Of a stretch of 64,000 nt of DNA, positions 22,411 to 42,410 are shown in pieces. The number at the start of each line of letters is the position of its first letter. Within the stretch, counting starts at the first letter, position 1. This DNA is from Clostridiales bacterium. Lineage in GTDB: Bacteria; Bacillota; Clostridia; Oscillospirales; Oscillospiraceae. Both the position numbers and the translations under genes were made by a program. The notes beneath the pieces are model-generated. The model saw only the letters and a program-made list of their open reading frames with translations, was not told where the DNA came from and did not search any database. Location: positions 1,288 through 65,287 of the forward strand of contig JAHZGF010000003.1 in assembly GCA_019420945.1 (NCBI GenBank), read 5' to 3'.

Positions 22411-22525
22411 ACGAAGGATGTTATGCACGGGTTGTCCACCCATGCATGGCACCTAATTGCTTGTTCAGCTAAGCCAATCAGATAAAACCGTCACAACCAA
22501 CATTGTAAATACAAAATTTACCAAA

Positions 22526-22942: not shown

Positions 22943-22964
22943 AACAATCCCTCCTCCCTAAAGG

Positions 22965-24239
22965 TTAATCATGTTCATCAAATCTGTCCAGCAAAGCCAT
23001 GGCAACATGATATGCCAAGCACACTGGTACTGCATTTCCAATTTGTTTGAACGCCAATGTTCGTGAGGGAATACCCTTTTTTGATTCGAAATAATAATTA
23101 TCCGGGAATGTCTGTATTCTGGCAGCTTCACGTGGCGTGATTGAACGATTTTGCTCAATATCCGGATGGATAAAATAGTGCCCATCCCGAGCGATATGGG
23201 CAACAATCGTTTGTGCATGCGGCAGATCTCCGGCGACGACTTTAAATCGGTCCAGGAAAGATGTAGTATTTTGATGTGTCCGGAGATTCGCTGGCAAATC
23301 TATATATGACACCCGGGTGCCAGTTCTGTTCCATGTATCCACAACAATCCGATAAATCTCCAGGTCTTGGTCTATGTGCGGTCTCGCTTGGTGGAATGTT
23401 ACTGGTTCAGTATCGTACTCCTTGATTCCGGACTCATACAGATATTGACCGTCGTAGTGTGCTGTAGGAACCGGCTCGGTCGTTCCGCCACCAGCAGGTA
23501 TAGCAGGCAAATCGCCAAATACCTCACTTACCAAATATTGATTTGGTATAGCCGGAATGTCAGGATAAAAGCCTTCATGATTTCCTCTGATGCCAATGAG
23601 AATGATCCTTTTCCGGTTCTGGAGAACTCCGTAATCTGATGCGTTGAGTGGTCGGAATTCAGTGGAGTACCCACATTCGCGGAACAGTGCCCTCATATTA
23701 TCAAAGTGAAGCGTCTCATCTTCGTCCTTGGCCGATAGCAGCCCAAGAACATTTTCAAACACAAAATATGCAGGCTGATATCTTCTCAGAAATTCAGCAT
23801 AGTGTCTGTAGAGATAGTTGCGCTGATCGCCTACCATTCGTGTTTCAGATCGGGATCGGCCTGCAAGGGAATAGGCCTGACACGGAGGCCCGCCAATAAT
23901 CAAGTCCAACGGTTCTTCACCAACCAATGCGTCAACTTCTTCGAAAATAGCCGGCAGCGTTTCCGTAGAAATCTCATAATTCAATACCGAATCCAAAACT
24001 CCCTGCGGAATGTGATCATAAAACTGATTGCGGCTAATTTCCCGATTGAGATATTGATTATATATATCCAACTGGTCATGCTCCCGCAACCAATGGTATG
24101 CCATACGTGTTTTCAACGTATAGCACGCAGCTACATCCATTTCCACATGTCCTACGGCCTCATACCCTGCCCTTAGGAAGCCTTCGGATAAACCTCCAGC
24201 TCCTGCAAACAGGTCCAAAAATCTGGGCATATACATCAC
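22965..24239 (-). CDS. dcm: DNA (cytosine-5)-methyltransferase (DrmMII-like position)
   Basis: Motif I is FLDLFAGAGGLSEGF, motif IV is GGPPCQAYS, motif VI is ENV and motif X is QIGNAVP. Confidence 0.92.
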   Translation of the reverse strand: MMYMPRFLDLFAGAGGLSEGFLRAGYEAVGHVEMDVAACYTLKTRMAYHWLREHDQLDIYNQYLNREISRNQFYDHIPQGVLDSVLNYEISTETLPAIFEEVDALVGEEPLDLIIGGPPCQAYSLAGRSRSETRMVGDQRNYLYRHYAEFLRRYQPAYFVFENVLGLLSAKDEDETLHFDNMRALFRECGYSTEFRPLNASDYGVLQNRKRIILIGIRGNHEGFYPDIPAIPNQYLVSEVFGDLPAIPAGGGTTEPVPTAHYDGQYLYESGIKEYDTEPVTFHQARPHIDQDLEIYRIVVDTWNRTGTRVSYIDLPANLRTHQNTTSFLDRFKVVAGDLPHAQTIVAHIARDGHYFIHPDIEQNRSITPREAARIQTFPDNYYFESKKGIPSRTLAFKQIGNAVPVCLAYHVAMALLDRFDEHD

Positions 24240-24277
24240 CCCGTCCTAACTTACATTTGGTTTGATGTCTGACCACC

Positions 24278-26011
24278 TTATGTACCAACTTGCGTAAAAC
24301 CAGACAGAATCATATTTTGGCGTTCCTGCTCGGCATTGCAATCATAAAGAACATAGAGCATCGCGCATGCACGGGAAGCTGCCACATAATTCAGCAACCG
24401 GGTTTCCTCATCAGAAAAATGGTCTATATCAATCATAATTACAATTTTCGATTCCAAACCTTTGAAACCGGAAATTGTAGAAAATCTCACATCGTTCTTT
24501 TTGGCTTTCCACAGTGGCCCTGTTGTCTTCAATGTTCCAAGGTCTTTATCCAGTCCTGTGAGACCCAGTCCATTCAGGGGATTTGCCAGCGTGTAGCGGG
24601 AAAGAATTATAAAATCGCTGCCAATCGCACCGCTGTCCTTAATTTTCCGGACAATCGCATTGATTTTTTTCCGTTCATCATCTTTTCCGTTATAGCTGCC
24701 ATACTCGACCTGTGGGCCTGACACCGTGGGTTTTCCCTGATTGGGAATGTTGGTCATCAGAATATTGGCATTTGCAATCTGCTTGGTGTTTCTGCAATTC
24801 GCATGTAATTTCCAACTCATTGCATACGCTTCTTTGCGAAGTTTCTTTATCATCGCATCAAGCTGAGCATAGGAATTGAAGATATTCTGGTTCGGATCAT
24901 AATAAATTGCCCATGATCCGTCGCCCAATCCATCCCGTACAATTCTGTCAATGCACTCCAGGTAGGTATCAGTGAGCAAATCCTGTCCTTCATCAATGAT
25001 TACCAAATCATACGCAGGAACATCTTCTGCCACAATAAAAGTTGCTGGCAATTCTTTCTCATAAAAATGCTGACTCAGATCCGAAGACCACTCAATACCG
25101 CAGGTACGCATCATGAATGCATGAAGTGTAACCGCTTCAATATAGACTCTGTCTTTTTCGAACTGGTACTGCACATACTGGGCAATATTGTGGTTATAGC
25201 AAAGGTACAGTACACTTTTTCCTTCCCAATATGCCCTGCGGGCCTGCTCCATTGCAATCAATGTTTTGCCTGCACCCGCAACGCCGGAAACCATCGTCCG
25301 AGGATTTTCAAAAAGCGATTCCAACACTTCATATTGCTCAGCGGTTAGCGCACACAACTCCTTCACTGTACGTTCCACCGTATCCTTCATAGAAGGAACA
25401 AAATAAAAATCACCGCGAAGCAGATTAGCCAGCTTATCGATTTCGGCATCAGTCAGCCGCCCACCCTCAAAGCCGTGCTTGTTCAGACAGGCCTGTCTCC
25501 AATATCCAAATGCCTGATTGGCAATGCTGTCCAAATTCCAGGACTGTTTTGCATCGACCAAGATCTCTGGAACAACATCGATACCGACACCCGTTGCTTC
25601 AAAACGGCAATCTGGCATAGCAACAGCACATGCATACTGGCAACGCACCAGTGGATCATAATTTCCAAGCCTGCGAACCATATACTGTCTTAAAGACTGC
25701 ATATTACCCTGCACTTGCTGGAATGGTCCTTCATTCTTACGAGAGATTTTGCCGTAGCGATTTGTAAATTCCCATACGCCATTTCTGCGGGAAACCTGCC
25801 CACCCTTAACTTCAAGACACAGTACACCCTCATTGCACAGAATTACAAAATCAATCTCACCGAAAATATTGTTGGCATGCTCTGCAATTCCCAATGAATG
25901 CAGAACAATATATTTTTTATTCGTTCTATGGTCCCGGAATTCGATAAACAGTCGCTTTTCAGCAGGACTCTTGATTTCCGGTGACAGAACATCTGGAATT
26001 AATTGAACCAT
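24278..26011 (-). CDS. NERD-domain nuclease fused to a UvrD/AAA_19-type SF1 helicase
   Basis: The NERD core is FGEIDFVILCNEGVLCLEVKGG. Walker A is SGVAGAGKT, Walker B is VIIDEGQDL, and the C-terminal UvrD_C-like segment is ISGFKGLESKIVIMIDID...YVAASRA. Confidence 0.8.
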   Translation of the reverse strand: MVQLIPDVLSPEIKSPAEKRLFIEFRDHRTNKKYIVLHSLGIAEHANNIFGEIDFVILCNEGVLCLEVKGGQVSRRNGVWEFTNRYGKISRKNEGPFQQVQGNMQSLRQYMVRRLGNYDPLVRCQYACAVAMPDCRFEATGVGIDVVPEILVDAKQSWNLDSIANQAFGYWRQACLNKHGFEGGRLTDAEIDKLANLLRGDFYFVPSMKDTVERTVKELCALTAEQYEVLESLFENPRTMVSGVAGAGKTLIAMEQARRAYWEGKSVLYLCYNHNIAQYVQYQFEKDRVYIEAVTLHAFMMRTCGIEWSSDLSQHFYEKELPATFIVAEDVPAYDLVIIDEGQDLLTDTYLECIDRIVRDGLGDGSWAIYYDPNQNIFNSYAQLDAMIKKLRKEAYAMSWKLHANCRNTKQIANANILMTNIPNQGKPTVSGPQVEYGSYNGKDDERKKINAIVRKIKDSGAIGSDFIILSRYTLANPLNGLGLTGLDKDLGTLKTTGPLWKAKKNDVRFSTISGFKGLESKIVIMIDIDHFSDEETRLLNYVAASRACAMLYVLYDCNAEQERQNMILSGFTQVGT

Positions 26012-26023
26012 ATTTTTCTCCTG

Positions 26024-27871
26024 TTATTCCAGCAAGGCTCCAAAGAATCCCCGTTCTCTGTCTTTTATAGTACCAACTACAGCAGCTCGATCCAACAAGC
26101 AGTTTCGCATTTCACAGCTGGTTTCAGGCAAAAGCGAACAAGCGTGGCACGCTGCGTAATTTAGAGAGTCATATCCCTGTGCATGAGATTCGATGCAAAT
26201 AGGATCGGAGGAACACCAAGACGCTTCCTGGAGCATATTTCTGAAAATCATTTCAAAAGACTCCGGGAGTCCTTTTCTCACCAATCCGCCCAAGCTACCA
26301 TCAGAGTCAGAAGAAGAAGTATATAACAGAATACCTGCCATTTTTACATCAGATTCCGGATAGGTGCTGTAAATCCGTTCCTTAATGGAAGCACCGGAAT
26401 AACCGCACTCCAATGACAACTGACGGATCAGCAGATGAGAAAGCGTGTGCAGCAGTACATACCGGGCGGAGAAATTCTCGCAGCCCACATTACTGTGTTC
26501 CAGACGGTCCCGCATGGGCAGATACTCATCCTCAAAAGCCGCTTCCCATTCTTCCAATGCATCTTCTCTTAGCTTGATGAACAAACCTTCTCCCAGCATT
26601 ACAATGGCAGGAAGCCAGTTCAACTCCACATCACTGAGCGGGACACAATCTCCGGACAAGTGGTATCCTTTGAATCTGTCGTCATCAGCATTGGGTTGCT
26701 CTGGAGTAATCCGGCGGAAGCCGCGCAACGCAAGTACCTCACGCAGGCGCTTTGCCAATACGACATCTTCGATATAGTCCTCGAGGAATTCCGGAACCGT
26801 TGCTCGTGCAATTCTGAACTGCACATCTTCCGGATCATCGTAATCACCCATGCAGAAAACACGATACTCATCTTCAAGCAGGTTCTGCTTGGTATACTCA
26901 CCTCCATCGCCGTCATTATAACGTTTCTTAATCTCAGATATTAACTCATCAATTGTACAAATCTGCATCGCCAATAACGAATGGAATACACCTTGTACAA
27001 CGGCTCTCAGGACATATTCATCTGGGTTGCTCGCCAGAATATCTTCAATTTGCTCCCATCGTACCGCAATTTCCTGCTGAACCTTACTGCTCCAAGGTGG
27101 AATAGTTAACGCACTTGCTGTCATAGAAAAATAAACATTGGAAGCCCCACGCTGGAGTGCCCGCAGCTGTGCTGTGCAGGACACCGGATCATTATATTCC
27201 TTTTTGCTGCCCAGCCAGGGACGTTTTCCGTGACAGGAGTAGCCCCGGAGGGCATCCTTAGCCATACTGCCAGCCATTGTGCGACTCTTTCCACAAGCAG
27301 TACACTTGATAACAACGCTGTCCAGTCCACCGGTTTCATCGGAGAAACTGATGCGAAGGGCACCGTTGCGTTTATCAGAAGGACATTCACTAAAGTTCCC
27401 GTAATGGACCCACCATTCATAGGGGAAGTCCTCCAGGTGGCCATTGGTACATGCGGCAATAAAACGGGAGGGAACAATATTTCTCTTAGGATGACCGTTA
27501 GAACAACTGCGGTCTGTCACATCGCCAAAGCCCCAGTACGGCATCAGCCTCCCGCAATTGGGATCAGGGCAGAAATGATAGTAGGGAAAGCGGAATGCCG
27601 GAACATCCGGAGTCATTTCGTCATCTTGGGAATTGGACACATAAGGCTCTTTGAAATGTGAGACTTTCAACAGTTTTTCAAGATTTGGTTCGTGCAGAAC
27701 CGGACTGTTATCCTTCCAGTAATTGGCACCCGCCATAATGACAGAATAATCCGGCATATCTACAATAGAACCGTTGCCGAAAGTGGTAATCAACTGCGTT
27801 TTGCGCAATCTGCCCACCACTTTCTTAGGCTTGGCTTGATCTCTGTTTGAACCAAAGTGTAGTCTTGCCAT
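26024..27871 (-). CDS. DUF1998-domain protein (DrmB-like)
   Basis: Several Cys clusters are present (HFCPDPNCGR, IKCTACGK). The C-terminal DUF1998/MrfA-type zinc motif is YAACHACSLLPETSCEMRNCLLDR. The start lies 2 nt after the stop of the helicase gene. Confidence 0.8.
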   Translation of the reverse strand: MARLHFGSNRDQAKPKKVVGRLRKTQLITTFGNGSIVDMPDYSVIMAGANYWKDNSPVLHEPNLEKLLKVSHFKEPYVSNSQDDEMTPDVPAFRFPYYHFCPDPNCGRLMPYWGFGDVTDRSCSNGHPKRNIVPSRFIAACTNGHLEDFPYEWWVHYGNFSECPSDKRNGALRISFSDETGGLDSVVIKCTACGKSRTMAGSMAKDALRGYSCHGKRPWLGSKKEYNDPVSCTAQLRALQRGASNVYFSMTASALTIPPWSSKVQQEIAVRWEQIEDILASNPDEYVLRAVVQGVFHSLLAMQICTIDELISEIKKRYNDGDGGEYTKQNLLEDEYRVFCMGDYDDPEDVQFRIARATVPEFLEDYIEDVVLAKRLREVLALRGFRRITPEQPNADDDRFKGYHLSGDCVPLSDVELNWLPAIVMLGEGLFIKLREDALEEWEAAFEDEYLPMRDRLEHSNVGCENFSARYVLLHTLSHLLIRQLSLECGYSGASIKERIYSTYPESDVKMAGILLYTSSSDSDGSLGGLVRKGLPESFEMIFRNMLQEASWCSSDPICIESHAQGYDSLNYAACHACSLLPETSCEMRNCLLDRAAVVGTIKDRERGFFGALLE

Positions 27872-27873
27872 AA

Positions 27874-30800
27874 TTACAGTCCTCCCAACAGGTAAATACC
27901 AGACTGGCCATCCACATTACGCATACTGTTCATCGTACGGAAACGGTCATTTTCAGTATCACCTTTCAGCAATTCTTTCTCATTTTTCCTGCCTTTATAT
28001 ACGAGGGAACCGGTCGCTGCAATATCCCACGCATCCTGAATATCTTTGAGTTCATCCATGACTGCCGACAATTCATCGGGGTCAACTCTTCTTACATAGT
28101 CTATAATGATTTTCTCAACCTTTTGAATTTCAGGATTGTCAGAGCGGTAATTGATTGCCTGACTGTTTCCTCTGAGGTTCTCGATCAGATAACGGCACAG
28201 GGAAACATATAATGCGTGCAGGCCACGATCTCTTGCACGGTCAGAGAAGGGGGTAAGACTTGTCGCTTCCACATAGCGGTACAACGCAGAATGATACTTC
28301 AGGAACTGCTCATAGTGTGAGCGGTCACGGGAACGGGATGCGTTGTACACAGCAATAACCAATCCGGGATTATCACGGCCCACACGGCTGGTTGCCTGAA
28401 TATACTCTGCATTGGTTTTCGGCTGACCTGCAACAACCATTGCACCCAAACGGCCCACGTCAACACCAACAGAAATCATATTGGATGCCAGCAGATAGTC
28501 AAATACATCCGCATGGTTATCCTTGGTATAGCCGCGTTTTAGCTTGACCTGAATAATCTCTGTGATTTCGGAATTACTCATGCGGCTTGTCAGTTCTTCC
28601 GTATATGTATACCCCTTGGAAGTATCTACACCAGGGTAGACAGACACAAATTTCGTTTTCGCAAGGTAATCCAAACGGCTCTGAACGTCGTCAAGGATCT
28701 GCGTACTTGCACCGCCCAATTCCCGCAAGCTGTTGAAATAACCCGTAATAGTCCAGAAATTATCTACAACTGCATCAGGATATCCCAATGTTGCCAGATA
28801 GCGCGTGGCAAACAGCATGGCTGCATTCACTCTGATCAATGTCGTGGTTGCAGTCGTTCCGATACCCATCACTCCAAAATACTGACGGGCAGGTCTTTCT
28901 TCAGGCGTGGACTGTATAGCAAAGAACGAATCCTTCGCAGAAAGGCCCTGCGGTGGAAACTGCGTGTGACCACGTCCATACAATGCCATGATTTGATTTG
29001 CTGCATTCCGGATGGTTGCGGTGGACGCAATTACTTTTGCGCAAACACCATCGCGCTCACAGAGCTTCGAGATGGCCGCCTCATAGATACCGGTCATCGT
29101 GCCGAGGGGACCGGAAATCAAATGCAGCTCGTCCTGGATAATAAGTTCCGGAGGCTTTTTGTTGTTCGCAATACCAAACAGTGCCGCCGGTTTGTCATTA
29201 AGAGGGATCTGAGCAAATTTATCTACAGTTGCCACAACAAAAGTAGGCAGATGCTGGTAAATAGCATCGTCAATAATATGAATAGGGAGACCGCCCGGCG
29301 CAGAATGGAAATGACAATGCTGATTCGGGCATTTGATTGTCATTCTGTTTTGAACAAGATCAACATCATAATGTTGTGCATAGAGCTTTTCACCGCACCA
29401 GGGACAAACCTTGATTTGCACAGGGTTTGACTTTTCATCAACACCGCCCTGTTTTTGCTTGTTGATGCTGGTTCTTGCATCTTTCAAATGATTGGGGGTA
29501 AGGTTGCCACCAACCCACAATCCAATGGAAATCTCATTTCCACCCAAACCATACTTTTTTCGCAGCAGTTCACATGCAAAAATCAGAATACTGGCTCGTT
29601 CAAACTGCTGGAGCGTCAAAAGCCTAAGTGTATATCGCATAATTACGGTAACCCCATCTGCGTTTGCATCACGAAGTCTGCGCAAAAAGATTACAAAGGC
29701 AGTAATACCTAAATATGCCTCTGTTTTACCACCGCCGGTGGGGAACCACAGCAGATCGACCATCTGTCGATCCGGAACATCCTGTCCGGGATGACCCTTT
29801 GGTTCAATAAAAGAGGTCAGCTCATGCAATACAAATGCCAGCTGGAAAGGATACCAGCTTACTTTGGCAGGGTCAAAAGATTTGCCGTTTTTCAGCAGTG
29901 TTTGCCTCCGTTGGAGCAGCATCGCCTCATTGGCAAGCTGGAAGGCACGGAAAACCTTTCCATCGCCAGCCGCACTGTCTTTCAGCAACTTGATAGCATA
30001 GTTTATTCTGTTGCATGCATCTTGACATTTTTGGATATTACCTTTAGCAACATCCTGCAAACTGTCTTTAACTCCAGACAGGAGATCGCCCTGATCCGTA
30101 ATCCACTTCTGATACTTAGCAGCAAATGCACTCAATTCACGAACGACCTCTTCAACAGATGCGGTAGCCAGAAATTGCATTGACAATACATTTCCACTGA
30201 CCACTTCTGCGGCTTTCATCTGACGGAGATTGAATGTTGGGAAAAATGCAGACTCTACCCATTCAGGCTCGGCATTATCCATATCCCACATAACAGAGCA
30301 TCCGTGTCCCTGCGCATAGCAATGGACATCAGAATACAGCATATCCAATTCCAGAAGTTCCGGATCGGTAGTCAAATATGCCTGCCGGTTTACACTGGTG
30401 AAAACAGCTGTTCCATCACTGCTGCTTACTCTGATGTCGGGCTGAAAAGCACAACACCTGGAGGTGGAGGTCATATCATTTTCGGACTGGTTCTCGTTAA
30501 CCAGTGCAATCGTAATTACACGCTCACCGGAATCCATAATAGAGTGTGTATAAACCTGCAGCTGGAGTCCGTTGGGTAAGTCTGCGTACTCCACCCGTTC
30601 GCCAGTAAATATAACTTTTTCGGCATAAGAATACTCGTTGCGTCGCCAAATTTCTTTGGGCTTCTTTTCTAGATATTCCCATCTGGAGGTATCAATTCCA
30701 CACTCCTTTGCATCATCAAAGGAAATCGGCTCATAGAAGGCATAGCTGCCAGAAATACAAATTGCACCGACACCTGCTTTCAGTGTAACCGTAATACCCA

Positions 30801-31053
30801 TAGAAGAAGGATTATTCTGATTACTCAGAGAAATGGATGCATCATAGGTTTCAATCTCATTTTCCAACAAGGGATTCCGCGCCAGATCCAATGCCTCCAC
30901 AGTATCCTTTTGCGGATACAGTTTGCCCATGATGTAATACTGAACCGGAACTTCAGCAAGGCATTCATCTTTTGTGACAGGTCCAATAAAATCCTGCTCC
31001 AGAATGCAGGATACAACCTCTCTGGCTTCATAGTATTTTGAATAGTCAGCCAT
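27874..31053 (-). CDS. Large SF2 helicase (DrmA-like)
   Basis: A roughly 430-aa N-terminal region of unknown fold is followed by motif I FPTGGGKTEAYLG, motif II IIQDELHLISGPLGT and motif VI QATSRVGRDNPG. The gene immediately precedes the DUF1998 gene. Confidence 0.8.
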   Translation of the reverse strand: MADYSKYYEAREVVSCILEQDFIGPVTKDECLAEVPVQYYIMGKLYPQKDTVEALDLARNPLLENEIETYDASISLSNQNNPSSMGITVTLKAGVGAICISGSYAFYEPISFDDAKECGIDTSRWEYLEKKPKEIWRRNEYSYAEKVIFTGERVEYADLPNGLQLQVYTHSIMDSGERVITIALVNENQSENDMTSTSRCCAFQPDIRVSSSDGTAVFTSVNRQAYLTTDPELLELDMLYSDVHCYAQGHGCSVMWDMDNAEPEWVESAFFPTFNLRQMKAAEVVSGNVLSMQFLATASVEEVVRELSAFAAKYQKWITDQGDLLSGVKDSLQDVAKGNIQKCQDACNRINYAIKLLKDSAAGDGKVFRAFQLANEAMLLQRRQTLLKNGKSFDPAKVSWYPFQLAFVLHELTSFIEPKGHPGQDVPDRQMVDLLWFPTGGGKTEAYLGITAFVIFLRRLRDANADGVTVIMRYTLRLLTLQQFERASILIFACELLRKKYGLGGNEISIGLWVGGNLTPNHLKDARTSINKQKQGGVDEKSNPVQIKVCPWCGEKLYAQHYDVDLVQNRMTIKCPNQHCHFHSAPGGLPIHIIDDAIYQHLPTFVVATVDKFAQIPLNDKPAALFGIANNKKPPELIIQDELHLISGPLGTMTGIYEAAISKLCERDGVCAKVIASTATIRNAANQIMALYGRGHTQFPPQGLSAKDSFFAIQSTPEERPARQYFGVMGIGTTATTTLIRVNAAMLFATRYLATLGYPDAVVDNFWTITGYFNSLRELGGASTQILDDVQSRLDYLAKTKFVSVYPGVDTSKGYTYTEELTSRMSNSEITEIIQVKLKRGYTKDNHADVFDYLLASNMISVGVDVGRLGAMVVAGQPKTNAEYIQATSRVGRDNPGLVIAVYNASRSRDRSHYEQFLKYHSALYRYVEATSLTPFSDRARDRGLHALYVSLCRYLIENLRGNSQAINYRSDNPEIQKVEKIIIDYVRRVDPDELSAVMDELKDIQDAWDIAATGSLVYKGRKNEKELLKGDTENDRFRTMNSMRNVDGQSGIYLLGGL

Positions 31054-31077
31054 AGCAAAACCTCCGGTTCTGTATAA

Positions 31078-33546
31078 TTAGTATGTGTCTTTGTCAACTG
31101 CTGCAAACCCTGTGATGGTTATGCCAGACCAAATACTGACATCTCCAAAGGTCTTTGCACCTGCGGGAACAGGGGCTATTCCAGACACACACGTTGTAAT
31201 GTTGTGGACATACACATCACAAAATGCATGAGGATATACCTCATAATACACCGAGCAATTCATATTTTTTATATGCTGAATTGCCTTTTCCAGTTCATGC
31301 GCAAAAGATTTGCTGGTATAGCCCAGTACAAGCTTTTCGTTGTCTTCCAGCACAATTCGATAAACAACATAGGGTTTTGTTCCTTCCGGACATTTAAGCA
31401 GTTTCAATCTCATTCCAGAATGAACACTCTTCCGGATATACTGCTGAAGCCTATTGTCGGCAGCGAAAGAGCGCAGATCCAGGTCGGCATCACTGCCAAC
31501 CTCGAAATGAGAAATATACCTTTTAAAGCCACCGGCTTTCGCACATCGTTTGCTCTGATCGTCATTCCTTGTAATGTAGATCTGTTTATCCTTCTTGGAT
31601 ATCTCGGCTCTTTCTACCTTTTTCTTTGGCCGTGTCAATGCAACATAACATACCTTATGTTCCAAAAGGTCTTCTGTATCGGGATCTGCCATTGCCTCAA
31701 TCACATCGTCAATGACAATCACAGAGTCAAATTCCTTGCCCTTTGCCCGATGAATGTTACTGACCGTAATAGAGTACTTGGCCCCCGTTCCGGATTCATA
31801 CAGCATTGGCTCCTTGGCATTCCTCAAGAGGCCTTTCAGCAGATCTGCAACCTCATATCTCTTCCGCGCTTCACCACGCTGTGTTGAAACAAGAGCCGTC
31901 CACCGCATATGTGCCATTTCGTATCCAGCCTCCGGAAACAAAGCAAGATGGTTTGACACAAAGGCAGTTTCATCAATAGATTCGTTTTCGTAGCCACAGA
32001 ATATACGGGCAATCCAGTCGCCCAGCGTCGGAGACCCCAGGCCACGGTGCAGAGTATGCGGAACATCCGCATTTTGGAGCCATGCAGAGATCTGCAATGC
32101 CTGTCCATTTGTGCGGGTAAGAATACCCAATGTCTCACCCTGACCGACATATCGCAGTGCATCGTCCCTTGAAAACTTGGTCAGTTTTACAGGCATCCGG
32201 GGAATGTGTGTCAACAAATCTTTCGCTGCAGAAACCCGTTCCGTGGTGGAACCAGTAAGGATTGCCTTCCGGTATGGGACAGTCAACTGCCCAAAGGTAT
32301 CACCCTGGCGGTGATTCTCTGTTAGTGCGTAATAATTGGCACTGGGGAAACTTTCGAAAATGTCTTGATAGAATTGCTCAGAGGACATAATCGCAGGATC
32401 GCCTTCTGCCATATAGTCGTACAAAGCCTGGCAAGAATCACCCAAAATCGTAAAACCACAAGTGTCAGGGAGGCCTTTCAGCATTGCCAGAACCAACTCT
32501 GCCCGGCTACCAACAAGATCTTGAACCTCGTCGACGATGATATGCTCATAATCAGCCAGCATATCTTTTTTCTTTTTGAAAATAGATGTTGCAACTTTTA
32601 TGCGCTGATCATAGTCATATGCTTCCAGAAGAAAATGTTTGGGAAGCAAATCCGTATGATTGTCCTGCACCCATGCCAGCATATATGTAGAGAAGGAGTC
32701 AAATGTACGAACATCTACATCCTGCCACTCATAACCGATGCGCCCATTCTCGGCAGCATCAGAGAGTCTGCTTCGTACAACCTCCACAGCGGAGCGAGAG
32801 AAACACAGAACCAGGATATTCTCTGCATTAGCCTGCTCCTCGTTGATCATATGGATGATTTTTTCAATCAAGGTCCATGTCTTGCCCGTGCCGGGGCCAG
32901 CATTTACGATGCTGCGCTCTGCAGGTTCCGCTTCAATGATTTCGTCCTGTGTGGTTTCTTTAAAGGAACTGAAATCGATTTTCTTGACTTCCGCAGGCTG
33001 GGACACCGGCTGAACGGGTTTCCGGACAACGAACGGAGCGTCCGGTTTTTTCTCCGCAGGAGTTGGAGTCCCCGATTCTCCAGCATGCTTCTGTTCCGGG
33101 GTGTCTCCTGCAAACAGTTTCGCTGCCGCTCCGGCATCTCCATCTTCTGGTGCACGCTTCTTTCGTGCAGCTTCTTCAAATTCAAAAATTGCCGGTTGAG
33201 CCCTTTTGTTCTCCTCATGTATTGCTAACTCGGAAGGATCAAAATCGGGACGGCAACTATGAAAGTGGCCGCATTTCGTGTTAAGGCACCTGCAGACGAC
33301 CTGCTCATGCCCCTGCTGGTCTCTAATTGTTCCCCAGGGATAGTCATTATTTGCAGCGTATGCGCAGTGAACCGATGCATAATCGTATTCTTTCTTCTGA
33401 AGGCTCGTCAATGCACATTGTTTTTTGAGAATCTCCAGCGAAAATGGGTCATGTATTTTGGAGCGGAACGTAGAGTCCTCATAAAAACTCTTTTCTACAG
33501 GATACAAATTGCTTCGGAACGCTACAGTACTGATATTACTCTCCAT
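31078..33546 (-). CDS. UvrD-like SF1 helicase with an N-terminal Cys/His cluster and an extra C-terminal domain
   Basis: The N-terminal cluster is CRCLNTKCGHFHSC. Walker A is NAGPGTGKT, Walker B is IIVDEVQDL, and ENHRQ and HRAKGKEFDSVIVID...VALTRPKK are also present. The start overlaps the Hsp70-like gene stop by 11 nt. Confidence 0.8.
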   Translation of the reverse strand: MESNISTVAFRSNLYPVEKSFYEDSTFRSKIHDPFSLEILKKQCALTSLQKKEYDYASVHCAYAANNDYPWGTIRDQQGHEQVVCRCLNTKCGHFHSCRPDFDPSELAIHEENKRAQPAIFEFEEAARKKRAPEDGDAGAAAKLFAGDTPEQKHAGESGTPTPAEKKPDAPFVVRKPVQPVSQPAEVKKIDFSSFKETTQDEIIEAEPAERSIVNAGPGTGKTWTLIEKIIHMINEEQANAENILVLCFSRSAVEVVRSRLSDAAENGRIGYEWQDVDVRTFDSFSTYMLAWVQDNHTDLLPKHFLLEAYDYDQRIKVATSIFKKKKDMLADYEHIIVDEVQDLVGSRAELVLAMLKGLPDTCGFTILGDSCQALYDYMAEGDPAIMSSEQFYQDIFESFPSANYYALTENHRQGDTFGQLTVPYRKAILTGSTTERVSAAKDLLTHIPRMPVKLTKFSRDDALRYVGQGETLGILTRTNGQALQISAWLQNADVPHTLHRGLGSPTLGDWIARIFCGYENESIDETAFVSNHLALFPEAGYEMAHMRWTALVSTQRGEARKRYEVADLLKGLLRNAKEPMLYESGTGAKYSITVSNIHRAKGKEFDSVIVIDDVIEAMADPDTEDLLEHKVCYVALTRPKKKVERAEISKKDKQIYITRNDDQSKRCAKAGGFKRYISHFEVGSDADLDLRSFAADNRLQQYIRKSVHSGMRLKLLKCPEGTKPYVVYRIVLEDNEKLVLGYTSKSFAHELEKAIQHIKNMNCSVYYEVYPHAFCDVYVHNITTCVSGIAPVPAGAKTFGDVSIWSGITITGFAAVDKDTY

Positions 33547-35002
33547 GCTGCACCTGCTTTCCAGGCAGCTTATAATAGCACTTCAACTGTGTGTATTCCC
33601 ACAGCCGCCGGAACTCTGCGGGCTGCATATTACTTCCGGCAACAACGGTGAACACCATATTCTGATCAACAGAAGCATTGAGTACAATCTGCTCCTGAAG
33701 GAAACGATACGCAGGGACCGAAAGTGTCTTATATCTTTCCGGAGAGGCCTCGATATCAGGACTTCCACCAAAAACAAAACGGGCTTCCTTGCTGGAATCC
33801 ACGATTCCGAAATGGCATGTATGCTCCCATCCACGAATTGGAGTATCCGGCTTCAGAATTTCGTAGTATGCATTGTCACTCAGAACGATACCAATAGACT
33901 GATTGGCATAATAACCACCGGGAGTCATTGCCAGCATAGCAGCACCCTGGCCGACATTCCACATGGTTTCTTCCGGGAAAAACAGCTTGTCTCCATACTT
34001 GTCATCCATCTTCTCCAACAGAGGACGCAAATTGCTGCTACCGCCCACCATAACGATCCGATCAATATTGGCAAGTCCAACTCCCGACTGACGGATAGCT
34101 TCCTCCAGACAGTCCATCGCCATCGTGACTTCTGGATCTACAATGTCAGCAAACCAGTCATATTCCAATGTTTCACGGCAGGCACCATACACGCCATAAT
34201 TATTGATAGAAATCGTGGCGGTATCATCATCGCCCAGCATGCGTTTTGCACGCTCGGCACGAACCCGCATCATATCCTGGGCGCTGGACGGCATATCTGC
34301 GAATGCCATCTCAACACCATTTTTACGGGCAATTTTTGCATGAATTCGCTTGGCAATTTTATCATCGATATAGTCACCGGCAATGCCTCTTCCGACTGTT
34401 GCCAATTCAGATACTTTTCCATTGACATGCTGAAGAATGGATACATCCAGCGTGCCACCGCCCCAGTCAAAAATCGCAACAACAGAAGAACTTTTCAGTT
34501 CATCATAGTTTGCAAAAAAGGCCGCAGTGGGTTCACTGATAAAAGAACTAATATGAATACCGGCTTTCTTTGCTGCTTCACGCAGTTTGGCACGCTTTGA
34601 TGCGCTGAAGCCAACGGGGATCGCAACAGTTGCCTCTTCCATGTCAATTCCGGTACGATTATGGACATTGGCTTTCAGATGCTTAAAAACCTCGCTGGCC
34701 ACATCGACAGCAGTCCATTCACGGCCTGCAATTGTTTTTATCCGCTCAGAATCCAGAATGGTCTTAACCGATGAGATATACTCACAGGATTCGCTCAGCT
34801 CCATCTTTTTATCCCATGCATCCCGGCCAGCGAATACAACGCCTGTGGTTTTATCAATCGCAACAACGGACGGGATCGGACGTCCTTCTCCATCGCCGTA
34901 TTTAACGGCTTCCGGCTTTTGATCCATCACCACATATCCAACAGTTGCACTGTTGGTTGTGCCGAAGTCAATGCCAAAATAATATTTCAATCCTGTTGCC
35001 AC
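33536..35002 (-). CDS. Hsp70-family ATPase (DnaK-like nucleotide-binding domain with a short divergent C-terminal domain)
   Basis: Phosphate-1 is YFGIDFGTTNSA, phosphate-2 is IFDWGGGTLDVSI and the adenosine motif is IVMVGGSSNLRP. At 488 aa the protein is shorter than canonical DnaK. The start is GTG after GAGGTGA. Confidence 0.85.
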   Translation of the reverse strand: MATGLKYYFGIDFGTTNSATVGYVVMDQKPEAVKYGDGEGRPIPSVVAIDKTTGVVFAGRDAWDKKMELSESCEYISSVKTILDSERIKTIAGREWTAVDVASEVFKHLKANVHNRTGIDMEEATVAIPVGFSASKRAKLREAAKKAGIHISSFISEPTAAFFANYDELKSSSVVAIFDWGGGTLDVSILQHVNGKVSELATVGRGIAGDYIDDKIAKRIHAKIARKNGVEMAFADMPSSAQDMMRVRAERAKRMLGDDDTATISINNYGVYGACRETLEYDWFADIVDPEVTMAMDCLEEAIRQSGVGLANIDRIVMVGGSSNLRPLLEKMDDKYGDKLFFPEETMWNVGQGAAMLAMTPGGYYANQSIGIVLSDNAYYEILKPDTPIRGWEHTCHFGIVDSSKEARFVFGGSPDIEASPERYKTLSVPAYRFLQEQIVLNASVDQNMVFTVVAGSNMQPAEFRRLWEYTQLKCYYKLPGKQVQHGE

Positions 35003-35013
35003 GGTTTTTCACC

Positions 35014-36300
35014 TCACTTAATTTTCATGCCGCCTTTTTCCAGTATATCGAAGATACTCTGAAGCTGGAGCCTCAGGTTCTCACCCAAATCACAGCTCAT
35101 AGGCACATCCAACGCATCCACAAAATCCCGATATTCGATGCGAATCTTGGATGCCAGTTTTTGAAGCAACTCGTCAGCCTGTTTACTTCTGTCCCGACTG
35201 AGAACCTCTGCCATTTTAACTCTTTCTGCTATTTCTGCATCTTTTTCGGCGATAACTGCATCTTTTTGCTTCACCGCCTGTCTCAGCGCAAAGATATCAC
35301 CTTCAGTGGCAGACAGTTTCTTCCTTAATTCAGTGATAGTATCCTGTAGATCTGCTATCTGTTGATTAGCTCCCTGAAGTTTATTTTGTTCTCCTTCCAG
35401 AGCTTGGGTCAGTGCATCAATTTTAACCCTCTGCTGTGTACTCTCGGCCTTGACAACGGTTGTAACTTTAGCAGCTTTCCCAAGCAACTCAGTAAGATAT
35501 GCTATCATGTCTGCGGGAACCTTTTCCTCAGGCTGAGCAACGACCACTCTCGGTGTTTGAACTTTCTCTTCCTGGGAATTGTCTGCAACAGATATGGTCT
35601 TCGCTTTTTCTTCTGTAATTGTTGTTGCCTCAGGGATTACTTGATCAGTCTTTGTGTCTGCACTGACCCTTTGGGAAATATCATAATCAGCAAACCACTT
35701 GCGAATCTTCGCAATATTTTTTACAACAACCCCTTTTGCTGAACCAGCATTTTCAATGCCATCCATTATGGAAGAAACAAGCGCTACAAACTCGTTAATG
35801 AATACCGGTTTGGTTCCAATATCTGCAAGAGGACATAGCTCCGCATCCGGTCGCAGTTCCGCCAGGAAATACTTCTCCAATGTTTTCTCAGCCGTGCCGA
35901 GCCGTTTTTTATCTTTATTAACACATGCACCCGGCAACCGCTTAATTATGGGCGCCAGTATATTCCTGGGAGCATTGTTATTAAGCATCAACGCAAGCAA
36001 ATGTGTCACCAAGCGGAAAGATACATTGCTGTCAATACCGTAGTATTTTCCGCTGAACATTGTTGCCAGTGTTGCATTTTGATCTTCCGTTTGAATCAAA
36101 TAGGCATAGAAAGGTTCTGCTCCACAGAAAGCAAATCCTTCATACAAAAACTGTTCGGCGCGACCGACCAAACCTGTATCCGCCACAAGGCTAAGCCATG
36201 CGCTGCGAAAAGCTTCTTTTTCCTTAATTGTAGGCTCTTTCTTTTTCTTTTCTTTTTTTACCTTCATCAACGCATCAAGCGTTTCAACGTATTTATCCAT
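35014..36300 (-). CDS. Hypothetical protein with a long C-terminal coiled coil (possible GrpE-like tail)
   Basis: The ORF has a GGAGG RBS at the chosen ATG (MDKYVETL); the longest ORF starts at 36345. The C-terminal ~130 aa are heptad-rich (QNKLQGANQQIADLQDTITELRKKL...) and end in GENLRLQLQSIFDILEKGGMKI. No family was recognised for the N-terminal half. Confidence 0.6.
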   Translation of the reverse strand: MDKYVETLDALMKVKKEKKKKEPTIKEKEAFRSAWLSLVADTGLVGRAEQFLYEGFAFCGAEPFYAYLIQTEDQNATLATMFSGKYYGIDSNVSFRLVTHLLALMLNNNAPRNILAPIIKRLPGACVNKDKKRLGTAEKTLEKYFLAELRPDAELCPLADIGTKPVFINEFVALVSSIMDGIENAGSAKGVVVKNIAKIRKWFADYDISQRVSADTKTDQVIPEATTITEEKAKTISVADNSQEEKVQTPRVVVAQPEEKVPADMIAYLTELLGKAAKVTTVVKAESTQQRVKIDALTQALEGEQNKLQGANQQIADLQDTITELRKKLSATEGDIFALRQAVKQKDAVIAEKDAEIAERVKMAEVLSRDRSKQADELLQKLASKIRIEYRDFVDALDVPMSCDLGENLRLQLQSIFDILEKGGMKIK

Positions 36301-36359
36301 GATGATTCCTCCATCAATTATCATTTTATTGCATTTTCTGTCCAATAAACCATCTATAT

Positions 36360-36572
36360 TCAGACTTCCGAATTCTTTATATACTCCACAATATCCCCAA
36401 AATCCGTATCCAGAGTGTCGCAGATTTTTTCCAGCACACCCATGGCCACAGGTTCGTCCCTGCGGAGTTTTGTCATGGTATTGGGGGCCAGTCCGGCAGC
36501 CTTGCGCAAATCGGCTTTGCTCATCTTTCTGTCAATCAACAACTTCCACAGTCTGTTATACGAAACGGCCAT
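36360..36572 (-). CDS. XRE-family HTH regulator (COG3655/YozG-like), first gene of the defence operon
   Basis: The sequence SYNRLWKLLIDRKMSKADLRKAAGLAPNTMTKLRRDEPVAMGVLEKICDTLDTDFGDIVEY fits the family. An AGGAGG RBS lies 8 nt upstream. Confidence 0.8.
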   Translation of the reverse strand: MAVSYNRLWKLLIDRKMSKADLRKAAGLAPNTMTKLRRDEPVAMGVLEKICDTLDTDFGDIVEYIKNSEV

Positions 36573-36603
36573 ATAGGAAACCTCCTGACAACATTACAAG
36601 TAT

Positions 36604-36640
36604 ACAAAATAATTATATCACATTTTGTCAGAGTTTTCAA
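36604..36640 (-). promoter_or_regulatory. Sigma-A-type promoter with a palindromic operator for the defence operon
   Basis: On the minus strand the promoter reads TTGAAA-17 nt-TATAAT with TGn extended -10. The -10 sits inside the dyad ACAAAAT-N11-ATTTTGT (36604-36628). A second dyad, CTGACAA/TTGTCAG (36585-36591 / 36625-36631), brackets the start region. Confidence 0.5.
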
Positions 36641-36943
36641 GATACTGTCGCAAGAACGTGCGATTATATAACGAAATAGTTGAACTCATGCTTGCGGCAA
36701 GGTACAGAAATCGCAGCATTTCGCCTTTCAACTCTGTGCCAATCATGCACATATCCAAGTGTGATTTCGTTACCTTTTGGCATATCCACTCCGATAATTT
36801 GCTTGTACAGTCAGCCGTTTCCCGTTTTTGGGGTATCCCCCCTTGCGAATTACGCAAAAATTTGCGTGAAGCCCCGCGCCGGTCTTTATACAAATTGAGC
36901 GTAGGGATTTTGACCCCCCCTTGGGGCCACCGCATGACAGCAA

Positions 36944-37846
36944 TTATTTTGTACCTCTTTTTGCCCTTTCCCGGTAGTAATACTCCTTTGATTTGAGTTT
37001 ATTCCTCACACTCTGGCATTCCAGCGTTCCGCAGTATTTCTGCCGGTTTCCCCGTTTTATGAACGCCTTACCGCAAGCCTGGCAGAACGCAATATTGGTT
37101 TTACCGCCGTAGTCATCCAGGGCGTTGGCATTCACCGCCATAAATCTGGCAAGACCGAAATAGGCTGCGTCTACCACGGATTTGACGGAGGGTTGCAGCT
37201 GGATCTGCCCGGTGGCGAGGTCATATTCCAGACCCATATTCAGTTTTGGTATCTTGTCAATAAACCGCTGCAGCACCAGAGGGCGGCGGGCGCTGTCCGT
37301 CCGATACCACTCCCGGATCAGATTCTCACGTTCGGGTACACGGACTTCATCATAAATTCTTTGGGCATTGCTTTCTTTGCCCTCTATCAGACTACGGATG
37401 GCGAAGGCTGTCATGGTGTCGGTATAGAGCTGCTCCAAATCCCGTACCATATCCTCCACGCAGATACGATAGCCCTCCAACACATTCACCAAGAAATCCC
37501 AAAAGTCATTCGGATCATCGTCATTCATTCCCAGGTGTACCATTTCGTCTCCGTAAAAATAGTAGGGATGGATATTTTCCATACTCCACCGAATCAGAAT
37601 CCGTGCGCATTCCTCCATGGACTTGTCCCGCAGTTCCAGATGGAGGTTACACAAATCAATCAGCAGTTCCTGACCCGCTGGATACCCCTTAAACACTTCG
37701 GGCGGCTTTTCCGGTTTATATACCGCATAGATCACCGATTTCCCACTCTCTGTTCCGATTCTGTATGAATGGAACCGGAGGGTGTGTTTTTTTATGTCTC
37801 CGATTCCGCCGATCTCATAATCCGTCAGTTCTCGTTTCAGATCCAT
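36944..37846 (-). CDS. Hypothetical element-encoded protein with a C-terminal zinc ribbon
   Basis: The start was chosen at MDLKREL after AAGGAGAG; the longest ORF starts at 37903. The C-terminus is FCQACGKAFIKRGNRQKYCGTLECQ. No family was recognised for the rest. Confidence 0.55.
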   Translation of the reverse strand: MDLKRELTDYEIGGIGDIKKHTLRFHSYRIGTESGKSVIYAVYKPEKPPEVFKGYPAGQELLIDLCNLHLELRDKSMEECARILIRWSMENIHPYYFYGDEMVHLGMNDDDPNDFWDFLVNVLEGYRICVEDMVRDLEQLYTDTMTAFAIRSLIEGKESNAQRIYDEVRVPERENLIREWYRTDSARRPLVLQRFIDKIPKLNMGLEYDLATGQIQLQPSVKSVVDAAYFGLARFMAVNANALDDYGGKTNIAFCQACGKAFIKRGNRQKYCGTLECQSVRNKLKSKEYYYRERAKRGTK

Positions 37847-37984
37847 AGAGTCACTCTCCTTTATCACCGAAAATCTTACCGTTAGAGTCGCGTATTTCAT
37901 CATTGTTCTTACCGATAGGACAAAGATTTATGCTCCTATTATATGCGATAATACAGCCAAACACAAGAGAAGGGAGTGAAATAT

Positions 37985-38164
37985 ATGAAAACGAGTTCTC
38001 ACAAGTCCGTATTCAATCTCAAGGAAGCGGCAGCTTACCTGGGAATCAGCGTACCCACACTGGTGCGGCTGCTGGGGAGCGGAGCCATTCCTTATCGCCG
38101 CGTGGGGCAGCGGTGGCTCATCGCGCGGGCTGCGCTGGATGATTGGCTGAACAAGAAAAACTAA
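37985..38164 (+). CDS. Excisionase-family / MerR-like HTH DNA-binding protein
   Basis: The sequence FNLKEAAAYLGISVPTLVRLLGSGAIPYRRVGQRWLIARAALDDWL is typical of Xis/AlpA-type HTH proteins. Confidence 0.75.
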   Translation: MKTSSHKSVFNLKEAAAYLGISVPTLVRLLGSGAIPYRRVGQRWLIARAALDDWLNKKN

Positions 38165-38180
38165 GGAAGGAGTGATCACC

Positions 38181-41132: not shown

Positions 41133-42410
41133 ATGTCAAGAACCGTAGAACAAATCCAATTTGCACCCCGGATGCCCAAGCCCCTCCGGGTGGCGGCATA
41201 CGCCAGAGTGTCCAGCGGCAAGGATGCCATGCTTCACTCCCTGGCGGCCCAGGTGGATCATTACAGCACCTTTATCCGCCACCATCACGGCTGGGAGTAT
41301 GTGGGCGTTTACGCCGACGAAGCCAAGACCGGCACCAGAGACAGCCGGGAGAACTTCCAGCGGATGCTCACCGACTGCCGTGCCGGAAAGATCGATCACA
41401 TTATCACCAAGTCCATATCCCGGTTTTCCCGGAATACCGTGACTCTTCTGGAAACGGTACGGGAGCTGAAAGAACTGGGCATCAGCGTTTATTTTGAAGA
41501 ACAGTCCATCGACACCGCCACCGCTGACGGAGAGTTGATGCTTTCCATCCTGGCAAGCTATGCCCAGGAGGAAAGTCTCTCCGCCAGCGAAAACCAGAAG
41601 TGGCGGGTGAAACGGAACTTTGAAGAAGGCATCCCCTGGCGATTCTTCATGCTGGGCTACCGCCGGGAGAACGGGAAGCTGGCCATTGTCCCGGAAGAAG
41701 CGGAGATCGTCAGAAGCATCTTCGATGACTACTTGGCTGGAAAGGGTGTCACCGCCATCGCCAAACGGCTGAACGAAAGCGGATACGCCACCCAGAGCGG
41801 CTGCGTGTTCCACAAGAGTGCCGTGGAACGAATTCTCCGCAACTATGCCTATACCGGGAATCTCCTGCTCCAGACCAAATTCCGGGAGAACCATCTGACC
41901 AAAGTCACCCGGAAAAACCAGGGCGAACTGCCCCGGTATCACGCGACGGACACCCACGAAGCCATCATTCCGCCGGAAACTTTCAATGCCGTCCAGGCGG
42001 AGATCCGGCGGAGAAAAGAGAAGTATGCCCCCACCAAGCCACAGCAACCATCCCCCTTCACGGGGCTTATCACCTGCGCCATATGCGGCAAACACTACCG
42101 CCGCAAAACCACCGCTACGGGGCCGGTCTGGATCTGCTCCACCTACAATTCCTACGGCAAATCCTACTGCCCCTCCAAAGCCATCCCGGAGGAAAAGCTG
42201 ATGCAGACCGTCGCCCTGGTTGGGCATACGGGCGAAATAACGGCGATTACCGCCCACAACGATAATCTTCTGGAGTTCACCCTCAAGGACGGAACCAACG
42301 CCGTGAAGCGGTGGCAGGACCGCTCCCGTGCCGAGAGTTGGACAGTGGAAATGCGCCGGGCCGCCGGAGAGAAAACACGGGAAAGGAAGCAGCACCATGC
42401 CGAAAGCTAA
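41133..42410 (+). CDS. Large serine recombinase
   Basis: Supporting segments are VAAYARVSSGKDAMLHSLAAQ, IITKSISRFSRNTVTLLETVRELK, a recombinase domain and the Cys cluster CAICGKHY...WICSTY. Confidence 0.9.
   Translation: MSRTVEQIQFAPRMPKPLRVAAYARVSSGKDAMLHSLAAQVDHYSTFIRHHHGWEYVGVYADEAKTGTRDSRENFQRMLTDCRAGKIDHIITKSISRFSRNTVTLLETVRELKELGISVYFEEQSIDTATADGELMLSILASYAQEESLSASENQKWRVKRNFEEGIPWRFFMLGYRRENGKLAIVPEEAEIVRSIFDDYLAGKGVTAIAKRLNESGYATQSGCVFHKSAVERILRNYAYTGNLLLQTKFRENHLTKVTRKNQGELPRYHATDTHEAIIPPETFNAVQAEIRRRKEKYAPTKPQQPSPFTGLITCAICGKHYRRKTTATGPVWICSTYNSYGKSYCPSKAIPEEKLMQTVALVGHTGEITAITAHNDNLLEFTLKDGTNAVKRWQDRSRAESWTVEMRRAAGEKTRERKQHHAES

Follow-up and report, generated by a model that had tools for sequence, protein, structure and literature searches.

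In a 64,000-nucleotide stretch of contig JAHZGF010000003.1 from a Clostridiales bacterium (hereafter the window), the gene at 33536-35002 encodes an Hsp70-like ATPase and lies in a defence operon of the DISARM type. We give about even credence to the reading that this protein is a dedicated, J-domain-independent, lid-less Hsp70 at the centre of a portable three-part module, which would gate a helicase through the tail of a small domain, here called X. The third part is a coiled-coil protein encoded directly upstream of the Hsp70-like gene. Judging from gene content, the module appears to plug into defence systems built on YprA-family helicases, represented in the window by a class-2-like DISARM variant with X fused to a UvrD-like helicase. 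The computed evidence comprises the fold of the Hsp70-like protein, its catalytic and allosteric residues, the loss of its J-docking position, the synteny of three genes over three kinds of host system, the fusion of X to the helicase and the accessory status of the module.

Fold, residues and phylogeny of the Hsp70-like family

The open reading frame (ORF) reported in the initial annotation, which gave no strand, exists and is encoded by the minus strand; read on the plus strand, the same interval gives a stop-ridden translation, and this reading was discarded. The gene starts with GTG, with GGTGA 7 nt 5' of the start, and its 488-aa product contains all three motifs quoted in that annotation, YYFGIDFGTTNSATV, FDWGGGTLDVSIL and IVMVGGSSNLRPL. 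The Pfam HSP70 profile matches residues 88-358 far beyond chance (E 4.1e-36), and the MreB match is weaker.

An AlphaFold2 (AF2) model, computed from an alignment of 35 diverse family members, has a mean predicted local distance difference test score (pLDDT) of 90.9 and a predicted template modelling score (pTM) of 0.88, and consists of an actin-fold nucleotide-binding domain (NBD) followed by an all-beta domain. In Foldseek searches the whole chain aligns to DnaK, Hsc70 and BiP, the best match being lid-truncated DnaK (7kru, TMq 0.78), with about 20-22% identity to DnaK structures. The family profile spans DnaK residues 1-466/501, through the IEVTFDIDANGI strands of the beta subdomain of the substrate-binding domain (SBD-beta), and the protein ends about 10 residues past the last beta strand, with the lid and the C-terminal tail absent. 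The profile boundary and the predicted fold therefore indicate an NBD plus SBD-beta without a helical lid. The absence of a lid agrees with the initial annotation, whereas the SBD that was described there as truncated or divergent is intact and homologous, only the lid being missing.

Of the 35 diverse members, 34-35 retain the equivalents of DnaK D8, K70, E171, D194, T199 and D201, and those of the allosteric residues P143 and R151 are likewise kept (at least 97%). At the position of R167, which serves J-docking in DnaK, the family has S, A, G, Q, T or K. No DnaJ match was found with Pfam among the 9 neighbouring proteins, although the genome may encode a J-protein elsewhere, and no GrpE-like gene was detected by Pfam among the operon neighbours. 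The statement that no operon protein carries an HPD motif needs correction in its letter, as the C5 methylase has one HPD tripeptide, at residue 358; in substance it stands, with no DnaJ or J-domain Pfam match. The operon thus offers no J-domain partner, as claimed initially, and the J-docking position is lost across the family. The SBD-beta pocket is mostly hydrophobic, with F/L at the position of F426, I/V at that of I438 and I/L at that of I472.

The family comprises about 218 clusters at 50% identity (E<1e-30) in an exhaustive search of 1.84 billion cluster representatives, nearly all of them about 480 aa long and aligned full-length. The best NCBIfam score of the protein is that for HscA (140.3 bits, cut-off 708.55), followed by DnaK (129, cut-off 822.55) and the YegD-type model PRK11678 (46, cut-off 331); with 140 bits against a cut-off of 708, it is not HscA. 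Phylogenetic placement against DnaK, HscA, HscC and YegD, suggested in the initial annotation, was carried out with a distance tree of 112 Hsp70-type sequences, in which 50 family members formed one group without any of the four E. coli proteins. Both the scores and the separate clade bear out the view that this is a non-housekeeping Hsp70.

A displaced housekeeping dnaK, hscA, hscC or yegD paralog carried by a mobile element was therefore rejected, and we regard its probability as practically negligible. Such a paralog would suit the Pfam Hsp70 match and the annotation names of the relatives ('Hsp70 family protein' or 'molecular chaperone DnaK'), but the equivalog scores lie 5-7 fold under their cut-offs, the full SBD that the initial annotation would have expected of a displaced dnaK/hscC gene is not there in that the lid is missing, no J-domain or GrpE neighbour accompanies the gene, the clade is separate, and the gene always turns up in a defence operon although the genomic backgrounds are unrelated. 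E. coli YegD (450 aa) resembles the Hsp70-like protein in being short, lid-less and not a general chaperone; it differs in falling outside the family clade, in its genomic context and in the low PRK11678 score given above. In E. coli K-12 (L094:2675-8129), the neighbours of yegD form a kinase/phosphatase/vWA trio: the yegI kinase, the pphC phosphatase and the yegL vWA protein.

Among the longer family representatives, no fusion of the Hsp70-like protein with a coiled-coil or X partner was found; P0142, P0154 and P0170 carry 190-320 aa of N-terminal tetratricopeptide repeats fused to the Hsp70-like protein, and the more distant representatives P0250, P0259 and P0261 have two NBDs in tandem. The plasmid collection contained no match, and the phage collection gave 3 weak, DnaK-like matches (25-29% identity, unannotated records).

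The three-part module and its host systems

Seven minus-strand genes with a spacing of -11 to 38 nt form the operon (Table 1). The stop of the coiled-coil gene and the GTG of the Hsp70-like gene have 11 nt between them. The junction of the Hsp70-like and UvrD-like genes reads ...CAGCATGGAGAGTAA, where TAA ends at 33536 and the ATG of the UvrD-like gene lies at 33546, and the 11-nt overlap noted initially is thereby borne out. The spacing from the UvrD-like stop to DrmA is 24 nt.

Table 1 Features of the operon and its surroundings in the window
Feature	Position	Strand	Description
Schlafen-type protein	18625-20304	-	AlbA_2 + HATPase_c_4 + winged helix; just beyond the recombinase flanking the operon
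Three large serine recombinases and a DUF3987 protein	20887-22410, 38172-40439, 41133-42410, 42328-43986	+	bracket the defence operon
DrmMII C5-cytosine DNA methyltransferase	22965..24239	-	424 aa; PADLOC DrmMII 1.7e-162; Pfam DNA_methylase 1e-54
NERD + superfamily 1 (SF1) helicase	24278..26011	-	577 aa; Pfam NERD 2.2e-11, AAA_30, UvrD_C_2; PADLOC RTasNERD-Hel 7.6e-43
DrmB, DUF1998/MZB protein	26024..27871	-	615 aa; PADLOC DrmB 1e-79; Pfam MZB 4.8e-9
DrmA, YprA-family superfamily 2 (SF2) helicase	27874..31053	-	1059 aa; PADLOC DrmA 4.2e-235
UvrD-like SF1 helicase	31078..33546	-	822 aa, X domain N-terminal; Pfam UvrD-helicase 4.6e-24, AAA_19, UvrD_C
X domain	33232..33546	-	about 105-110 aa, N-terminal part of the UvrD-like protein; strand motif STVAFRSNLYPV and Cys cluster C..CRC....C.....C
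Lid-less Hsp70-like ATPase	33536..35002	-	488 aa; NBD ~1-360, SBD-beta ~363-478, no alpha-helical lid
Coiled-coil partner	35014..36300	-	428 aa, ATG at 36300; variable helical N-domain, ~100-aa coiled coil, conserved C-terminal motif
Candidate sigma-70-like promoter	36612..36640	-	TTGAAA-17-TATAAT with TG, in the ~640-nt gap 5' of the coiled-coil gene
319-aa protein, doubtful operon member	36944..37903	-	C-terminal Cys cluster; no family match (Pfam, PADLOC, NCBIfam)
AAA_13 ATPase	55515-57797	-	760 aa; PF13166, 6e-115

The coiled-coil protein, listed in the initial annotation merely as a member of a complex to be predicted, turned out to be the most constant partner of the Hsp70-like protein: an ORF of 350-510 aa is always found directly 5' of the Hsp70-like gene, and it is homologous in 17 of 18 aligned loci, that of L018 aligning poorly. 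Its N-domain is fast-evolving (12-48% identity) and its C-terminal motif reads YxDFxEA..M..DLGENLR.Q...IF..L.K.GI, while the homologs of 428 aa are 100% identical. No Pfam, PADLOC or NCBIfam family matched it beyond coiled-coil noise, and a search of the PDB returned generic coiled coils alone.

Of the UvrD-like helicase, to which the initial annotation coupled the Hsp70-like gene, the part conserved as downstream partner is the N-terminal domain of about 110 aa, X, and not the helicase core. X precedes the helicase motifs of the protein, whose translation shows Walker A (GPGTGKT) and Walker B (DEVQD), and is homologous to a small ORF that follows the Hsp70-like gene in non-DISARM loci: a hidden Markov model of the DISARM-type N-termini, searched against 4,794 ORFs, found these ORFs at E 1e-29 to 6e-12, with the next match at 0.06. 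A database search also recovered a family of standalone X proteins of 185-200 aa. The N-terminal strand of X bears the family motif SN(I/V)x(I/V)xSN(V/I)(Y/F), i.e. SNxxxxSN, and this tail is the best-conserved part of X. As a regular expression, SNxxxxSN matched 19 times in 949,214 ORF residues, 17 of the matches lying no further than residue 37 in an ORF that comes immediately 3' of an Hsp70-like gene. The AF2 prediction of X alone is of low confidence (pLDDT 48), with the tail modelled as unstructured (pLDDT 31-38), and was too poor for a fold search; no solved homolog of X was found in the PDB.

Three of these 17 matches come from L031:11472-11762, L032:4431-4652 and L033:9162-9398, where ORFs of 73-96 aa with an (S/T)N-x-x-x-x-SN start each follow a much more distant Hsp70-like gene. 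The loci belong to Verrucomicrobia, Elusimicrobia (two tandem copies) and Chloroflexia; the small ORFs of L032 and L033 also have Cys clusters, and C2H2-like zinc-finger proteins are encoded upstream in L031 and L033. The resemblance of these pairs in sequence hints at a wider class of Hsp70-plus-tail modules.

The closest relatives (73-77% identity), on a Synergistes chromosome and on conjugative elements, have the same seven-gene cassette in otherwise unrelated surroundings, beside a relaxase in L004-L006 and between metabolic genes on the chromosome in L001. A scan of one genome per species yielded about 24 loci with full-length family members (30-77% identity) from Clostridia, Treponemataceae, Synergistaceae, Gastranaerophilales, Cloacimonadota, Desulfomonile and Acidobacteriaceae. 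In most loci with enough sequence the order coiled-coil, Hsp70-like, UvrD-like (X), DrmA, DrmB is kept, with the NERD-helicase next in order in the closer loci only. Overlaps or gaps of at most 31 nt separate the module genes in all loci, and the tight coupling of the Hsp70-like gene to the next gene, proposed from the window alone, was seen in every locus examined.

The pair of coiled-coil and Hsp70-like genes was also found within Druantia-type operons of Desulfomonile and Acidobacteriaceae. L021 encodes DruF (1e-145), DruL (9e-66) and DruE (E=0), with DruM on the opposite strand, and in L017 the pair adjoins a DruE-like helicase (3.5e-218). In the Druantia II/IV-type loci L021 and L088-L090 the trio stands between DruF and DruL with overlaps of 1-8 nt, giving the order DruF, coiled-coil, Hsp70-like, X, DruL, DruE in the contexts with standalone X. 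The same trio as in the window is thus shared with Druantia II/IV (DruM, DruF, DruL, DruE); the systems differ in that X is there a free protein of 185-200 aa and that the window lacks DruE, DruF and DruL. DruE and DrmA/B all belong to the YprA family. In one further locus the trio adjoins an SNF2 helicase and DUF1156 methylases, and in another the pair adjoins phospholipase D (PLD), UvrD and PAPS-reductase genes. In none of these loci does PADLOC offer a model for the coiled-coil/Hsp70-like pair, its Druantia models being without the trio, and no named family in Pfam, PADLOC or NCBIfam matched the Hsp70-like, coiled-coil, X or 319-aa proteins.

A metagenome scan anchored on DrmA served as the accessory test. 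Of 10 loci with a DrmA of 44% identity or more and sufficient sequence upstream, 8 contain the module, whereas at 30-44% identity it occurs in 1 of 47 loci, and that one is divergent. The module is therefore an add-on regulator rather than core machinery; in other words, the three parts (coiled-coil, Hsp70-like, X) are accessory to DISARM. The Hsp70 gene accordingly is part of the operon here, as the initial annotation had it, but most related DISARM operons lack an Hsp70. At the same position, 19 of the 47 have a plain UvrD-like gene without X, 570-640 aa long apart from a few of other lengths that were counted as well (e.g. L131, L171). X was thus grafted, together with the Hsp70-like and coiled-coil genes, onto a helicase already present in the DISARM lineage. 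The short UvrD-like proteins upstream of DrmA in related loci were considered as DrmE and rejected, none of them matching DrmE at E<=1e-12.

Additional genes accompany or replace the module in some loci. In L100:4252-8988 and L101:4139-8989 (DrmA 53-55% identical), a giant protein of 1578-1616 aa with a UvrD-like C-terminal part replaces the coiled-coil, Hsp70-like and X-helicase genes. A protein of about 1,000 aa with no Pfam or PADLOC match is encoded directly 5' of the coiled-coil gene in L012:5647-8697, L017:5409-8540 and L028:5313-8540; the copies, from one DISARM-type and two DruE-type loci, are homologous (E ~1e-60) and may be a fourth, optional part of the module. A second such group of upstream proteins occurs in L019, L020, L026 and L027. 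L087:9312-17315 is a decayed Druantia-type locus with its DruE-like helicase split into several ORFs and a 229-aa gene without Pfam match at the expected Hsp70-like site; the X protein encoded after it is intact.

The defining genes of DISARM are drmA, drmB and drmC, the last of which encodes a PLD protein; class 2 has drmMII in addition and, in some cases, drmE (Ofir et al. 2018 via 10.1101/2021.12.28.474362, PMC9142583); drmC is a member of the core triplet, yet experimentally dispensable. The helicase/methylase operon of the initial annotation is of this type, as DrmA, DrmB and DrmMII have very strong PADLOC scores and lie in the usual order on one strand. It differs from class 2 DISARM in lacking both a PLD DrmC and a DrmE match. 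Pfam found no PLD match in the operon, and the open frames of at least 100 aa in the 64-kb window are all free of the HxKx4D motif, the position of PLD DrmC being taken by the NERD-SF1 helicase. No PADLOC model for DrmE matched any operon protein; for the UvrD-like protein, the best 25 of 49 matches are all GajB-type or RTasHel. With neither drmC nor a DrmE match, the operon is, on sequence criteria, a class-2-like DISARM variant and not textbook class 2. The UvrD-like SF1 gene upstream of DrmA and the NERD-SF1 gene downstream of DrmB are further differences from class 2, common to many DrmA relatives, and the coiled-coil/Hsp70-like/X module is added on top in a sub-clade only. Gabija is not indicated, as no operon protein matches GajA and the UvrD-like protein matches GajB over generic helicase motifs (~1e-22).

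Possible mechanism and alternative explanations

HscA recognises the LPPVK motif of its single client IscU, DnaK releases the DnaB helicase from lambda P, and BiP holds IRE1. By analogy, we infer that the parts of the module form a physical complex in which the X tail binds in the SBD groove, the coiled-coil protein has a role of its own and, as the initial annotation proposed, the Hsp70-like protein performs ATP-driven remodelling or gating. SBD-beta would clamp the exposed N-terminal tail of X, the binding state being set by ATP hydrolysis and exchange, and this ATP-dependent cycle would hold, release or remodel the UvrD-like helicase and thereby act on the DrmAB/NERD-helicase machinery. Since the operon has neither a J-protein nor a GrpE-like gene and the Hsp70-like protein has lost the J-dock, the coiled-coil partner possibly controls the ATP cycle; it might stand in for a J-protein or exchange factor, or supply the input signal. 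The module would in this way decide when the DISARM helicase/nuclease machinery turns active. Action on a helicase complex, and not general protein folding, was suggested initially and fits the strictly conserved defence-operon context.

Several observations weigh against this reading. The position aligned to DnaK V436 is occupied by R, N or H, a polar residue that is uncertain because two aligners give different registers near strand beta-1, and the arch residues differ too; binding of classical hydrophobic peptides is therefore not assured. The coiled-coil partner resembles no known co-chaperone in Pfam and PDB searches, and the N-terminal strand of X could simply be part of a zinc-binding fold that AF2 does not reproduce. 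In the distance tree, monophyly of the family has a bootstrap of 66/100 with saturated distances, so the tree is rough, and the statement that the module never stands alone rests on about 25 informative loci.

An infection sensor that works by titration, in the style of BiP-IRE1, would overlap with the proposed gating but place the key client outside the operon: unfolded proteins derived from or induced by phage would compete with the X tail or the coiled-coil partner for the SBD and so free the helicase/nuclease system. The pocket of SBD-beta is hydrophobic at most DnaK positions, lid-less Hsp70s bind and release clients fast (PMC12642450), and lid-less DnaK-like domains on EACC1-protease modules have been proposed to sense misfolded proteins (bioRxiv 2025.11.14.688446 / PMC12642450). 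Those domains share with the protein studied here an anti-phage context and a proposed role as sensor, not foldase; they differ in that they share about 50% identity with DnaK and form fusions with a protease or pore-forming effector, whereas the Hsp70-like protein stands alone and is linked to helicase systems. Phage sensing by bNACHT25 also requires the host DnaJ/DnaK cycle, and the fast-evolving N-domain of the coiled-coil partner is as expected under phage counter-evolution. However, no external client was identified by sequence, the residue at the V436 pocket position is polar, and the strictly conserved X-tail motif argues for a main client encoded in the operon itself, which makes titration rather unlikely.

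Pure assembly, in which the Hsp70-like protein and its partner fold or assemble the Cys-rich X/helicase protein or a multi-helicase complex without regulating it, as HscA and HscB do for IscU, would agree with the conserved Cys cluster of X, with the co-assembly suggested by translational coupling of the three genes and with HscA as the best, though far sub-threshold, NCBIfam match. The HscA-HscB-IscU system is indeed similar in pairing a specialised Hsp70 with an adjacent Cys metal-binding client and a short motif (LPPVK, compared with the candidate SNxxxxSN), but HscA has a lid, a J-protein, HscB, and about 616 aa. Assembly as the sole function is made improbable by related DISARM operons, which do without such a chaperone for their plain UvrD-like helicase, and by X itself, which goes with the Hsp70 and in Druantia-type loci is a free, enzyme-less protein, more like an adaptor or switch than a hard-to-fold enzyme. 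It is quite improbable that the coiled-coil, Hsp70-like and UvrD-like genes are a self-contained defence system that merely lies beside DISARM in a defence island. Portability of the trio to Druantia-type and SNF2/DUF1156 systems and the use of UvrD-like helicases elsewhere, e.g. GajB, would be expected of such a system; yet the trio was never found alone in about 25 informative loci, it is inserted with overlapping genes between DruF and DruL, X is fused to a helicase that related DISARM operons have at the same position, and only 24 nt separate this gene from DrmA.

The closest precedent is CnuD/CnuCD of the Type III CoCoNuTs, which are related to McrBC and include an Hsp70-like NBD/SBD protein (Bell et al., eLife 2024, PMC11090510). 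As in the window, CnuD has no J-protein, some of its operons are linked to YprA/DUF1998 helicases, and its function is predicted (PMC11090510). RNA binding was predicted for CnuD from the degeneracy of its Walker-A-like motif (PMC11090510). Druantia I/II were recently regrouped as Type IV CoCoNuTs in a paper that does not mention Hsp70, and the module occurs in Druantia II/IV-type loci. By extension, the NBD/SBD unit of the Hsp70-like protein might be a nucleic-acid-binding adaptor that binds RNA or single-stranded DNA and targets the system with little ATP turnover. We consider this very improbable. Compared by CnuD's description only, CnuD has degenerate Walker-A-like motifs, HEAT-like repeats, its own coiled coil and McrB/McrC plus HEPN RNase partners, whereas the present family has intact catalytic residues, separate coiled-coil and X partners and operons of the DNA-targeting DISARM and Druantia types. 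No McrB, McrC, HEPN or HEAT match was found by Pfam in the operon.

A broader and less probable proposal goes further: the module may represent an unrecognised class of portable, J-independent Hsp70 switches for prokaryotic immunity, with a built-in, degron-like tail that is released on infection, and may extend to the L031-L033 pairs. Such a class would be a bacterial counterpart, by analogy, of BiP-IRE1 or Hsp70-HSF1 control.

Novelty, significance and surroundings of the operon

A literature search found no link of Hsp70 or DnaK to DrmA/DrmB or to Druantia components apart from the CoCoNuT work, and a search for Hsp70/DnaK together with anti-phage defence returned the CoCoNuT, EACC1 and bNACHT25 papers alone. 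Hsp70-like proteins in defence are thus already known, while no description of the three-part module was found in PADLOC, NCBIfam or the searchable literature; neither PADLOC 2.0 nor NCBIfam 20 recognises it. What switches DISARM and Druantia on, and what keeps them from attacking their own host, is understood only in part; for DISARM, the DrmA trigger loop is the known control (PMC9142583). With its intact catalytic residues and the candidate client motif built into its operon, the Hsp70 offers a testable handle (K80, E157 and D186 of the Hsp70-like protein; S12/N13 of the X tail). That a J-independent, catalytically intact Hsp70 recurs in two major immune systems based on helicases was not to be expected and, if the reading is true, it would be a rare example of an Hsp70 that dispenses with a J-protein and works with a single dedicated partner. 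Clostridia of the human and animal gut commonly have the module, and mobile elements carry it, so it may affect the movement of phages and plasmids within the microbiome.

In the window, the recombinases and the DUF3987 protein bracket the operon, which is thus cargo of an integrative mobile element. The promoter candidate matches 11 of 12 consensus positions and is the best within 22000-38500, as judged by consensus match alone. The 319-aa protein occurs upstream of the operon in the closest relatives alone (L095, L096 and L098), so it probably lies outside the module. Another defence gene of the window may be the AAA_13 ATPase, whose family is typical of anticodon-nuclease or abortive-infection genes. 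A 477-aa protein similar to the Schlafen-type protein of the window is encoded about 0.9 kb 3' of DrmB in L027, past a 204-aa ORF.

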